A stretch of DNA of 64,000 nt. It comes from Escherichia phage W143. The stretch's first letter is position 1. The number at the start of each line of letters is the position of its first letter. The translations under genes and the position numbers were made by a program. Shown in pieces: positions 2,350-15,569 of the stretch. The stretch lies in the sequence record MZ189262.1; one strand, written 5' to 3'. The notes beneath the pieces were generated by a model. The model searched no databases. It saw only the letters and a list, made by a program, of their open reading frames with translations, and was not told the DNA's origin.

Positions 2350-3974
<1,625 letters not shown>

Positions 3975-4642: not shown

Positions 4643-5280
4643 TGAATGAACCCCAATTACTAATTGAAACTTGGGGTCAACCTGGCGAAATTATTGATGG
4701 TGTGCCAATGCTCGAATCCCACGATGGAAAAGACTTAGGTTTAAAACCGGGTTTATACATCGAAGGAATATTCATGCAAGCAGAAGTCGTCAATAGAAAT
4801 AAACGTCTTTATCCAAAACGCATATTAGAAAAAGCGGTAAAAGACTATATTAATGAGCAAGTTTTAACTAAACAAGCTCTCGGAGAATTAAATCATCCTC
4901 CACGCGCTAATGTTGACCCGATGCAAGCCGCTATCATTATAGAAGATATGTGGTGGAAAGGAAATGACGTATACGGACGAGCTCGTGTTATTGAAGGTGA
5001 CCACGGTCCTGGAGATAAATTAGCAGCTAATATTCGTGCCGGATGGATTCCAGGAGTTTCTTCTCGTGGATTAGGTTCATTGACTGACACAAATAAAGGT
5101 TATCGTATCGTAAACGAAGGATTCAAATTAACTGTAGGTGTTGATGCAGTATGGGGTCCAAGTGCTCCAGATGCATGGGTAACTCCTAAGGAAATTACCG
5201 AATCACAGACGGCGGAAGCCGATACAAGTGCCGATGACGCCTATATGGCTCTCGCAGAGGCCATGAAAAAAGCGTTATAA
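4642..5280 (+). CDS. 21: prohead core protease gp21
   Basis: 212 aa; position and length of T4 prohead protease. Confidence 0.9.
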   Translation: MNEPQLLIETWGQPGEIIDGVPMLESHDGKDLGLKPGLYIEGIFMQAEVVNRNKRLYPKRILEKAVKDYINEQVLTKQALGELNHPPRANVDPMQAAIIIEDMWWKGNDVYGRARVIEGDHGPGDKLAANIRAGWIPGVSSRGLGSLTDTNKGYRIVNEGFKLTVGVDAVWGPSAPDAWVTPKEITESQTAEADTSADDAYMALAEAMKKAL

Positions 5281-5283
5281 ATA
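5276..5283 (+). promoter_or_regulatory. late promoter TATAAATA (gene 22)
   Basis: Exact match overlapping the gene 21 stop. Confidence 0.7.
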
Positions 5284-5310
5284 TTATTATCTAAACAACA
5301 GGACTACAAA

Positions 5311-12839: not shown

Positions 12840-12852
12840 AATATTTCCTCAG

Positions 12853-12860
12853 TATAAATA
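12853..12860 (+). promoter_or_regulatory. late promoter TATAAATA (uvsW)
   Basis: Exact match about 30 nt before the uvsW start. Confidence 0.7.
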
Positions 12861-12889
12861 TAGATATATTTATTACATGGTATTTAGAC

Positions 12890-14401
12890 ATGACTGACAT
12901 TAAAGTACATTTTTATGATTTTAGTCACGTGAGAATTGATTGTGAAGAAAGTACATTTCATGAACTCCGTGATTTCTTTAGCTTTGAAGCTGATGGGTAT
13001 CGTTTTAATCCGAAGTACAAATATGGCCACTGGGATGGACGAATCCGTCTTTTAGATTATAATCGCCTTCTTCCGTTTGGTTTAGTCGGGCAAATTAAAA
13101 AGTTCTGCGATAACTTTGGCTATAAAGCTTGGATTGACCCGCAAATTAACGAAAAAGAAGAATTATCAAGAAAAGATTTTGATGAATGGCTTTCTAAGTT
13201 AGAAATCTATTCAGGAAATAAAAGAATTGAACCGCACTGGTATCAAAAAGATGCAGTGTTCGAAGGATTAGTTAATCGTCGTAGAATTCTTAATCTTCCA
13301 ACATCCGCAGGTAAATCTTTAATTCAAGCTTTGCTTGCACGTTATTATTTGGAAAATTATGAAGGTAAAATTCTTATCATTGTTCCAACAACTGCTTTAA
13401 CAACTCAGATGGCTGATGACTTTGTTGATTATCGTTTATTCAGTCATGCAATGATAAAGAAAATTGGCGGCGGAGCATCAAAAGATGATAAATATAAAAA
13501 TGATGCACCGGTAATTGTTGGTACATGGCAAACTGTAGTAAAACAACCAAAAGAATGGTTCTCACAGTTTGGAATGATGATGAATGATGAATGCCATCTT
13601 GCTACAGGAAAAAGTATTTCATCTATCATATCAGGTTTAAATAACTGCATGTTTAAATTTGGTCTATCGGGTTCATTACGTGATGGCAAAGCTAATATCA
13701 TGCAGTATGTTGGAATGTTTGGTGAAATATTTAAGCCGGTAACGACTTCTAAATTAATGGAAGATGGACAAGTAACTGAGTTAAAAATTAATAGTATTTT
13801 TCTTCGCTATCCCGATGAGTTCACTACTAAATTAAAGGGAAAAACTTACCAAGAAGAAATAAAAATTATTACTGGGCTCAGTAAAAGAAATAAATGGATC
13901 GCTAAATTAGCTATTAAACTTGCGCAAAAAGATGAAAACGCTTTTGTCATGTTTAAGCATGTATCACATGGTAAAGCTATTTTCGATTTAATTAAAAATG
14001 AATACGATAAAGTTTATTACGTATCAGGGGAAGTTGATACCGAAACACGCAACGTAATGAAAACCCTAGCTGAAAACGGTAAAGGAATAATTATAGTAGC
14101 TAGTTATGGTGTATTTTCTACCGGTATTTCAGTTAAAAATCTGCATCACGTTGTTTTAGCGCACGGTGTTAAATCTAAAATTATTGTATTGCAAACAATA
14201 GGTCGCGTATTACGTAAGCATGGTTCTAAAACAATCGCAACGGTCTGGGACCTCATAGATGACGCGGGCGTAGTTTCTAAATCAAAAACATCTTCTAAAA
14301 AATACTCGCATTTAAACTATCTTTTAAAACATGGACTTGATCGTATTCAGCGTTATGCTGATGAGAAGTTTAATTATGTGATGAAAGAGGTTAAACTTTG
14401 A
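12890..14401 (+). CDS. uvsW: UvsW SF2 DNA helicase
   Basis: 503 aa; Walker A (PTSAGKS) and DEAH-like box (MNDECH); late promoter upstream. Confidence 0.92.
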   Translation: MTDIKVHFYDFSHVRIDCEESTFHELRDFFSFEADGYRFNPKYKYGHWDGRIRLLDYNRLLPFGLVGQIKKFCDNFGYKAWIDPQINEKEELSRKDFDEWLSKLEIYSGNKRIEPHWYQKDAVFEGLVNRRRILNLPTSAGKSLIQALLARYYLENYEGKILIIVPTTALTTQMADDFVDYRLFSHAMIKKIGGGASKDDKYKNDAPVIVGTWQTVVKQPKEWFSQFGMMMNDECHLATGKSISSIISGLNNCMFKFGLSGSLRDGKANIMQYVGMFGEIFKPVTTSKLMEDGQVTELKINSIFLRYPDEFTTKLKGKTYQEEIKIITGLSKRNKWIAKLAIKLAQKDENAFVMFKHVSHGKAIFDLIKNEYDKVYYVSGEVDTETRNVMKTLAENGKGIIIVASYGVFSTGISVKNLHHVVLAHGVKSKIIVLQTIGRVLRKHGSKTIATVWDLIDDAGVVSKSKTSSKKYSHLNYLLKHGLDRIQRYADEKFNYVMKEVKL

Positions 14402-15090
14402 ATTATAAATTAATATACGATAATTTAATTAATAGAGCCCAGAATCGGGCTCGCCTTAATGGATACACTGAAACTCATCATATAATTCCTAGATGTATGG
14501 GCGGTACAGATGATAAGTGTAATTTGGTAGAACTAACAGCTGAAGAGCATTTTATAGCTCATAAACTTTTAGCTAAAATTCATCCAAACCATTACGGTAT
14601 AATTAAAGCCGTTATATGTATGGGAATGAATTCAAATACTCATGAAAGACACGTTAATAAATCTTACGCCTGGGAACGTCGTAAAATGGCAAAACTTCAA
14701 TCAGGTGAAGGTAATCCATTTTACGGAAAACACCATACGGAAGAACATAAACAATATATGTCAAAACTCATGAAAAATCGTCCAATTACGTGGGGAAGTA
14801 AAATTAGTAAAACTAAAAGAATGAACCCAACAAAATGGACTGAAGAAGCTAAAAGATTGCATTCTATCAATCAATCAGGTAAAAATAATGGCATGTATGG
14901 AAGGAAACATTCCGCTAAATCTATTCAGAAAATTAAAGATAACATGCCAGATAATTCAGGAGCTAATAACCCAGCTGCTAAACCTATAGAAGTAAATGGT
15001 GTTAAGTATAAATGCATGAAAGATGCTTCTAAAGCTACTGGATTATCAATGTACAAACTAAGAATACTTAGAAAAACAGTTAATTTATAA
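14398..15090 (+). CDS. HNH homing endonuclease with NUMOD-like repeats
   Basis: 230 aa; N-terminal ETHHIIPRCMGGTDDKCNLVELTAEEHFIAHKLL HNH core; repeated G-N-P-x-Y-G-K-x-H-S/T motifs; TTG start overlapping uvsW stop. Confidence 0.75.
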   Translation: MNYKLIYDNLINRAQNRARLNGYTETHHIIPRCMGGTDDKCNLVELTAEEHFIAHKLLAKIHPNHYGIIKAVICMGMNSNTHERHVNKSYAWERRKMAKLQSGEGNPFYGKHHTEEHKQYMSKLMKNRPITWGSKISKTKRMNPTKWTEEAKRLHSINQSGKNNGMYGRKHSAKSIQKIKDNMPDNSGANNPAAKPIEVNGVKYKCMKDASKATGLSMYKLRILRKTVNL

Positions 15091-15104
15091 GGGCTTCGGC
15101 CCTT
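15089..15104 (+). terminator. hairpin between HNH gene and uvsW.1
   Basis: AAGGGC-TTCG-GCCCTT; no strong U tract. Confidence 0.4.
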
Positions 15105-15115
15105 TGGAGAAAAAG

Positions 15116-15346
15116 ATGTTACTAGAATTTAAACAATTTCTTTATGAAGCTTCTATTGATGAATTTATGGGTAAAATTGCCTCTTGCCAAACATTAGAAG
15201 GTCTAGAAGAACTTGAAGCTTATTATAAGAAAAGAGTTAAAGAAACTGAATTAAAAGATACTGATGACATCTCAGTTAGAGATGCTTTGGCAGGAAAAAG
15301 AGCTGAATTAGAAGATTCAGACGATGAAGTAGAAGAAAGCTTTTAA
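15116..15346 (+). CDS. uvsW.1: UvsW.1-like small acidic protein
   Basis: ATG at 15116 preceded by GGAG; 76 aa as T4 UvsW.1; ORF track frame starts at TTG 15104. Confidence 0.7.
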   Translation: MLLEFKQFLYEASIDEFMGKIASCQTLEGLEELEAYYKKRVKETELKDTDDISVRDALAGKRAELEDSDDEVEESF

Positions 15347-15401
15347 ATTAAAAAAGGCCCAACCAAAAAGGAAGGGCCAAAACTATAGACTAAAGGTCAC
15401 A

Positions 15402-15569
15402 CTATAGCAAAAGTTGTGTTTCATTTAATTGTTCTTCCGAACTTTCTGAAACTGGTAGTTCTTTAATGTAATTATAGCAAGGCCCAGGATGTACAGGACC
15501 TTTGTCTGTTTCAACAACCAATGCAGAATCGATTGGAGTTTTACAGACAACACAAATCTTATCTGACAT
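15402..15569 (-). CDS. small Cys-containing protein (about 55 aa), not in ORF track
   Basis: Hand translation MSDKICVVCKTPIDSALVVETDKGPVHPGPCYNYIKELPVSESSEEQLNETQLLL; GAGGAGA RBS 4 nt upstream of ATG; coordinates +/-2. Confidence 0.5.
   Translation of the reverse strand: MSDKICVVCKTPIDSALVVETDKGPVHPGPCYNYIKELPVSESSEEQLNETQLLL

Follow-up and report, generated by a model that had tools for sequence, protein, structure and literature searches.

In this study we describe a gene located at the 3' end of uvsW, the helicase gene of the T4-like Escherichia phage W143 (Tequatrovirus), and propose that it is very probably a free-standing, Mob-type homing endonuclease gene (HEG) of the HNH class that lives within uvsW, with cleavage and target being predictions. 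The window, which is the whole stretch of DNA analysed, comprises 64,000 nt of sequence record MZ189262.1, and all positions are counted from its first letter. The open reading frame (ORF) of the HEG runs from 14398 to 15090 on the plus strand and encodes 230 amino acids. It begins with a TTG codon that overlaps the uvsW stop codon TGA (14399-14401) in the tetranucleotide TTGA, just as an initial annotation of the window, made from the letters alone, had claimed. That annotation had let the gene end at 15115, which is not the end of the ORF (15090); it is the last base preceding the ATG of uvsW.1 (15116). It had also stated that the HEG separates two genes that are adjacent in T4, and indeed uvsW and uvsW.1 lie 25 nt apart in the HEG-less phages T4, RB14 and T2. 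Its general reading of an HNH/NUMOD endonuclease with a TTG start at the uvsW stop is supported by the domain matches and by the comparison across genera presented below. The new details are modest, namely that the TTG start is conserved and that the uvsW tail is shared in frame; the gene itself is ordinary and has already been annotated in other phages.

The HEG product is composed of an HNH nuclease (approximately residues 20-60), two NUMOD3 modules (approximately 94-122 and 155-180) and an I-TevI-like DNA-binding domain at the C terminus (approximately 157-228), and as such is a putative free-standing homing endonuclease of the Mob type. The N-terminal HNH core noted initially, with the motif HHIIPRCMGG...NLVELTAEEHFIAH, is present and contains HH27-28, N42, H51 and H55. 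In an alignment of 40 homologues drawn from a collection of 5.8 billion proteins, H28, N42, H51 and H55, the catalytic and structural residues of the HNH motif, are invariant. The profile built from this family matches the HNH domain of McrA (E 9.5e-4), and 30 of its 40 members match Pfam HNH (PF01844) at E <= 0.01. Pfam NUMOD3 scored 51 bits against a cut-off of 20.4 in two stretches of the protein; two GNPxYG(K/R)xH motifs had been noted initially, and although both modules exist the second motif actually reads NNGMYGRKH. The two modules form an internal direct repeat in the DNA (14697-14728 and 14871-14902, 72% identity) with a spacing of 174 nt, which is also found in Gaprivervirus and Dhakavirus. 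The DNA-binding domain of I-TevI (1i3j) was matched by the family profile with E 3.8e-8 and by the single sequence (phmmer) with E 0.006; for the single sequence Pfam I-TevI_DNA-bd was below its cut-off (14.7 vs 27). PHROG 655, 'homing endonuclease', was matched with 4e-61.

The AlphaFold2 model has a mean predicted local distance difference test score (pLDDT) of 84.8 and shows a strand-strand-helix (beta-beta-alpha) arrangement at residues 25-61 with pLDDT >92. Fold searches with the whole elongated model returned no significant match, the specific weak matches being the I-TevI DNA-binding domain, HNH domains and I-HmuI; for the C-terminal I-TevI-like helix-turn-helix domain Foldseek gave a probability of 0.99. 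The gene is free-standing, lying outside any detected intron and between uvsW and uvsW.1, which are separate ORFs. Some GenBank records carry the label of a group I intron endonuclease, which we rejected: there was no Rfam match in 14100-15450, and TIGR01453 reached 29.9 against a cut-off of 56.05.

The TTG start is supported by comparison. Orthologues in four genera overlap the uvsW stop at the same position, as TTGA in three of them and as ATGA in Jiaodavirus, and in every case the next two residues are N-Y. In the three lineages with TTG a Shine-Dalgarno (SD) sequence, GAGG or AGGTGG, precedes the start by 6-8 nt; in Jiaodavirus, with ATGA, the SD is poor. In the window the SD is AAGAGG from 14385, within the last uvsW codons and 6 nt upstream of the TTG. 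A different start has nevertheless to be considered, because TTG initiates translation weakly and is rare as a start codon. The first in-frame ATG of the HEG is Met34, inside the HNH motif, and translation from there would yield a nuclease-less DNA-binding protein made up of NUMOD3 and the helix-turn-helix. Two GenBank records do call a 199-amino-acid ORF from an internal ATG, without the HNH motif, namely SP18 (1572-2267 of the compared stretch) and pEC-M719-6WT.2 (2971-3666), and the UniRef entry for UFV-AREG1 is 146 amino acids long. However, codons 2-34 are under purifying selection like the rest of the ORF, with a ratio of nonsynonymous to synonymous differences (pN/pS) of 0.08-0.5. For codons 2-34 and codons 35 to the end this ratio was 0.08 vs 0.06 between the window and T6, and 0.08 vs 0.17 between Gaprivervirus and Dhakavirus. 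Moreover, Y3, Y23, H28 and P31 are invariant across the 40 homologues, and the conserved overlap, the ATG in Jiaodavirus and the SD sequences upstream of the TTG also speak against Met34. Hence we regard a start at Met34 as very improbable. The initial annotation had named a downstream start without the HNH core as the outcome that would contradict it; with the overlap in four genera and selection on codons 2-34, the comparison favours the TTG. Given this selection and the invariant residues, the records of SP18 and pEC-M719-6WT.2 appear to be mis-annotated. The conserved TTG start accounts for the truncation or omission of the HEG in several GenBank records, whose annotations can be corrected.

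Overlapping stop and start codons are a known mode of expression of the mob and seg genes of T4, for example UAAUGA in mobE (PMC2988022). In the window an 11-bp RNA stem is predicted on the plus strand at 14365..14399 (14365-14375 pairing with 14389-14399), which would cover the UU of the UUG codon as well as some of the SD. The fold of 14350-14460 has a z-score of -2.9, and the local fold amounts to -9.4 kcal/mol in the Tequatrovirus alleles that carry the HEG (HEG+). A hairpin that sequesters the ribosome-binding site as a conserved regulator was rejected, as the stem is confined to Tequatrovirus. It is possible that the predicted stem acts as a lineage-specific reinforcement of translational coupling, which would be opened by ribosomes finishing uvsW. 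Another, perfect GC-rich hairpin, GAGCCCAGAATCGGGCTC, is found 35 nt into the HEG ORF (14435-14452) and was called by the scanner as terminator-like on the minus strand.

Alignments to the empty site of T4-type phages (T4, T2, RB14, KIT06) define an insert of 689 nt at 14387..15075 on the plus strand, and a synthetic empty site aligns with HEG-less (HEG-) phages in one piece. The gene had been described as wedged between uvsW and uvsW.1, which is correct for its location between the two genes; the insertion point, however, is within uvsW, five codons before its 3' end. On the left the insert brings a replacement uvsW tail, GAG GTT AAA CTT TGA (EVKL*, 14387..14401, plus strand), which according to junction alignments with T4 and other genera holds the TTG start and the SD. 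Consequently uvsW ends in the window with ATG AAA GAG GTT AAA CTT TGA (MKEVKL*), replacing ATG AAA ACA GTT AAT TTA TAA (MKTVNL*). On the right the resident uvsW tail AAA ACA GTT AAT TTA TAA (KTVNL*, 15073..15090, plus strand) is retained and matches the HEG-less uvsW 3' end exactly. The HEG ORF has no stop codon of its own and runs in frame into this KTVNL*, which now provides its last five codons and its stop. To the right of the insert the GGGCTTCGGCCC hairpin follows unchanged, and then uvsW.1. Taken together with the linked upstream sequence described below, the element is a cassette of ~805 nt (14271..15075) in which the final ~38 uvsW codons, in recoded form, are followed by the HEG ORF.

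The same layout of the insertion, with genus-specific tails, was observed in all four genera (Tequatrovirus, Jiaodavirus, Gaprivervirus and Dhakavirus). In Gaprivervirus both the left tail, which closes uvsW, and the right tail, which ends the HEG, read IKQVEI*, and the repeat is identical over 19 nt and in 21/22 nt. Dhakavirus has MKEVQI* on the left and MKQVDL* on the right, the latter corresponding to the empty site of JS98, with a repeat of 18/24 nt. In Jiaodavirus the left tail is KTVNL*, the right one NL*, and the repeat is short. At the empty site of these three genera the uvsW stop overlaps the ATG of uvsW.1, and the SD for uvsW.1 lies inside the uvsW tail. Because the tail carries this SD, its duplication gives a ribosome-binding region to both the HEG and uvsW.1. 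It may be that the tail-sharing layout is a functional design and not a scar, although we consider this rather doubtful. If it were a design, synthesis of the HEG product would be strictly coupled to translation of uvsW, uvsW.1 would keep an undisturbed initiation region, and the direct repeats would remain and permit precise loss.

The idea that the HEG itself created the split between uvsW and uvsW.1, as in 'genes in pieces', was rejected, since every T4-like phage, with or without the HEG, has uvsW and uvsW.1 as two separate ORFs, and the split is ancient (PMC1524935). The fused uvsW of 587 amino acids in the T4 RefSeq record NC_000866 (5180-5200 of the compared stretch) is a sequence error at the GGGCTTCGGCCC GC hairpin, and the newer T4 record MT984581 gives 503 amino acids. 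In Roth16 (Jiaodavirus; 2494-2504 of the compared stretch) uvsW ends with GTA AAT TTA TGA and contains, in frame, the slippery-type heptamer A_AAT_TTA, with the -1 frame being the frame of the HEG. This heptamer, considered as a possible signal for a -1 frameshift fusion of UvsW with the HEG product, occurs in the Jiaodavirus allele only, lacks conservation in the other genera and probably reflects chance.

The same gene is present at the same site in at least 48 Tequatrovirus records with 96-99.7% nucleotide identity, including T6, Yersinia phage PST, ACG-C40, HY03 and UFV-AREG1, and it is missing from more than 440 other Tequatrovirus records among the matches listed; these figures, from at least 500 records overall, are lower bounds. 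Most carriers are annotated with 'homing endonuclease', some with 'hypothetical', 'group I intron endonuclease' or GIY-YIG, and in PST the label is 'mobD'. As the gene is annotated in T6, PST, ACG-C40, HY03 and others, it is not a novelty of W143. Orthologues at the same site were found in Jiaodavirus (Roth16, PSE-D1; 69% amino-acid identity, 13 records), in Gaprivervirus (SP18, pEC-M719-6WT.2; 58%) and in Dhakavirus (UP19, ESCO10; 59%). Presence at this one site is thus patchy, and the corresponding empty sites are exact. Scans of IMG/VR yielded two near-identical copies, the other matches being distant paralogues. A review of T4 mobile elements names only segE for uvsW (PMC2988022, Table 1), and the genome paper of UFV-AREG1 merely mentions two UvsW coding sequences.

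Evidence for mobility comes from the uvsW sequence directly upstream of the insert. There, a diverged tract of ~115 nt at the uvsW 3' end (14271..14386, plus strand) is linked to the HEG and presumably represents a co-converted or cleavage-immune segment. When seven HEG+ and six HEG- Tequatrovirus phages were compared over ~3.4 kb, 18/18 fixed differences fell within 14282-14380, with none elsewhere in the compared region nor downstream. Mean pairwise identity in the uvsW core was 97.0% among HEG+ phages, 97.0% among HEG- phages and 97.0% between the two groups, and in uvsW.1 with its spacer the respective values were 98.7%, 98.9% and 98.8%. The distal part of the tract (14271-14313) gave 99.3% among HEG+ and 95.7% among HEG- phages vs 67.6% between them, and the proximal part (14314-14386) 98.8% and 99.0% vs 85.3%; the changes in the proximal part are almost all synonymous and at third positions. 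Because identities of the flanks are equal within and between the groups, the carriers do not form a clade on the flanks. A diverged tract that travels with the HEG while the outer flanks are mixed points to homing with co-conversion. In Jiaodavirus, 30/33 fixed differences lie <=160 nt upstream and none in the 500 nt downstream, in a comparison of only two HEG+ with two HEG- genomes. Linked differences on the upstream side only, in two genera, fit free-standing endonucleases that cut away from their insertion site; for such enzymes it is known that the cut is distant from the insertion site and that the interval is co-converted (PMC2988022). Synonymous divergence (dS) of the HEG was also far lower than that of uvsW, with 0.007 vs 0.27 between the window and HY03 and 0.17 vs 0.88 between UP19 and ESCO10. 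At the same time the whole HEG ORF is under purifying selection, with a ratio of nonsynonymous to synonymous divergence (omega) of 0.06-0.26.

Strict linkage of the whole 115-nt tract to the HEG was partly rejected, as its distal part also occurs in the HEG-less phages LH2 and OES_C-1 to -3. In these (LH2, OES_C-1: 1801-2119 of the compared stretch) the distal tract is of the HEG+ type (VVSKSKTSS), the proximal tract is of the HEG- type, and the site is empty. These mosaics limit strict linkage to ~73 nt at 14314-14386. They may be simple recombinants, or else recipients in which conversion took place around a cut site and the gene was not gained. If the tail sharing were a functional design, the upstream-only tract and the mosaics would place the cleavage site 75-115 nt into uvsW, and the LH2 and OES_C alleles would be 'immunised' without having acquired the gene. 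Donation of the tract by one of the sampled genera is unsupported: in Tequatrovirus the HEG+ tract shares 63-75% identity with the alleles of Jiaodavirus, Gaprivervirus and Dhakavirus and is no closer to them than to T4.

Based on these data, a homing cycle for the proposed endonuclease can be envisaged. The HEG would be co-transcribed with uvsW from a late promoter at 12853; a consensus T4 late promoter, TATAAATA, can be read directly in the sequence upstream of uvsW (12853..12860, plus strand), and it likely drives a transcript of uvsW, HEG and uvsW.1. A scan of the uvsW-HEG junction revealed no sigma-70-like promoter or terminator signal standing out. Low-level translation of the HEG might then occur by termination-reinitiation coupling at UUGA. 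In a mixed infection the enzyme would bind via NUMOD3 and the I-TevI-like domain, and it is predicted to cut or nick the uvsW 3' end of a co-infecting HEG-less phage, probably within the last ~115 nt. Recombinational repair would copy the cassette in, always co-converting the interval between cut and insertion, and the recoded tract, the disrupted junction or the two together might protect the carrier.

Several observations weigh against our reading. Pfam HNH (PF01844) stayed below the gathering score for the single sequence (16.7 vs 21.4 bits, E 0.008, partial model coverage). A literature search returned no study characterising this enzyme, and the RNA stem over the start is weak or absent outside Tequatrovirus. 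In Gaprivervirus, HEG+ and HEG- alleles show no upstream difference, so a recoded tract is not universally required for self-protection. Finally, divergence of the HEG between genera follows the order of the hosts, and this suggests that long-term vertical descent with losses contributes to the distribution. The last point leads to a different explanation, according to which the HEG is a resident, largely immobile or domesticated endonuclease that entered the common ancestor of these Tevenvirinae genera and was inherited vertically with many losses. Instead of spreading itself, the gene might by now serve the phage, e.g. by excluding the markers of competitors or by binding DNA as a regulator. 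Indeed, HEG identity between Gaprivervirus and Dhakavirus is 85% vs 58-69% for the other pairs, much as UvsW identity is 84% vs 72-78%. Purifying selection would be expected of a useful gene too, and the 19-22 nt direct repeats around the Gaprivervirus insert offer a route to precise loss. However, within genera the carriers are not a clade on their flanks, the HEG is far less diverged than the neighbouring uvsW, the boundaries of the cassette are sharp while its backgrounds are varied, and segE and the HNH gene occur in all four possible combinations. We therefore consider an immobile or domesticated gene unlikely and favour the mobile homing endonuclease.

The combinations just mentioned concern the GIY-YIG endonuclease gene segE, which T4 carries between inh and uvsW. 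The segE gene is absent from the window, as had been noted initially; the gap between inh and uvsW measures 50 nt there (12840..12889). Regarding segE and the HNH gene, the window is -/+, T6 +/+, T4 +/- and T2 -/-, and the two genes thus assort independently. SegE targets uvsW, which is also the presumed target of the HEG, and is patchily distributed among T-even phages (PMC2988022, Table 1); it differs in nuclease family and in its position at the 5' end of uvsW. This 5' end is itself variable: some phage pairs share only ~80-90% identity over its first ~170 nt, and between the segE-less window and the segE-carrying T4 the identity over the first 130 nt is 73%. The divergence (12840-13100 in the window) is probably a SegE-linked polymorphism.

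By sequence the closest characterised relative of the HEG product is T4 MobE: residues 1-168 are 42% identical to the mobE region of RB59. Both have an N-terminal HNH of the same subfamily, and both genes are free-standing, oriented like their neighbours, without an obvious promoter of their own, and start in an overlap with the stop of the upstream gene (PMC2988022). In contrast, mobE is located between nrdA and nrdB and targets nrdB, whereas the HEG is predicted to target uvsW. Moreover, the HEG encodes a longer C-terminal part with two NUMOD3 and an I-TevI-like domain, starts with TTG instead of ATG and ends in a duplicated tail of its host gene.

Another likeness is with the T4 MobA system, in which, reportedly (Bonocora et al., PNAS, 2011), mobA is associated with the gene 60 bypass cassette. 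In both cases an HNH mob gene and a neighbouring sequence move as one cassette, and the latter alters the host gene at the target, but the companion here is the recoded 3' end of uvsW, with no translational bypass element and no new split of the host gene. Among structurally characterised enzymes, I-TevI (PDB 1i3j/1t2t) has a DNA-binding domain that aligns with the C-terminal ~70 residues of the HEG product, but its nuclease is GIY-YIG and not HNH. I-HmuI (PDB 1u3e) resembles the HEG protein in its layout of HNH and NUMOD. Both I-TevI and I-HmuI are intron-encoded, unlike the HEG, for which no intron was detected. It is conceivable that the enzyme is a strand-specific nickase like I-HmuI and that homing is begun by a nick which replication turns into a break; with the fold matches being weak, we hold this to be a tentative option and not the favoured one.

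If the proposed homing endonuclease is accepted, uvsW carries a second selfish endonuclease at its 3' end beside the GIY-YIG endonuclease SegE at its 5' end, and the HEG accounts for a local hot spot of divergence in the uvsW sequence of Tequatrovirus. The tail that is shared in frame in four genera illustrates how insertion of a free-standing endonuclease into a coding region can leave both neighbours unharmed. The current understanding of homing endonucleases is unchanged by these findings.

The surroundings of the HEG are those of a T4-like genome. The gene order is hoc(-), inh(-), uvsW(+), HEG(+), uvsW.1(+), uvsY.-2(-), uvsY.-1(-), uvsY(-), 25(-), 26(-), 51(+), which apart from the HEG is the order of T4, and a paralogue of the HEG was sought in the window and not found. 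The host and presumed target gene uvsW (12890..14401, plus strand) encodes a helicase of 503 amino acids with matches to Pfam UvsW_N (3.9e-43), ResIII and Helicase_C. The uvsW.1 gene (15116..15346, plus strand) encodes 76 amino acids and matches Pfam UvsW-1 (1.5e-30) and PHROG 1143. Between the HEG and uvsW.1 lies the native uvsW/uvsW.1 spacer (15091..15115, plus strand) containing the GGGCTTCGGCCC hairpin as well as the GGAG SD of uvsW.1, the same as in HEG-less phages. Tandem duplications in uvsW.1 were seen in two other phages: in IME339 a duplication of 60 nt (~2100-2160 of the compared stretch) is in frame and gives a longer UvsW.1, and in BYEP02 one of 77 nt (~2030-2110 of the compared stretch) splits the ORF. 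Further downstream, some HEG+ phages, namely SYGD1 (5199-5291 of the compared stretch) and HY03 (about 5170-5294), have uvsY.-2 and uvsY.-1 separated by an additional ~100 nt that include a small ORF, a segment that the window does not have.

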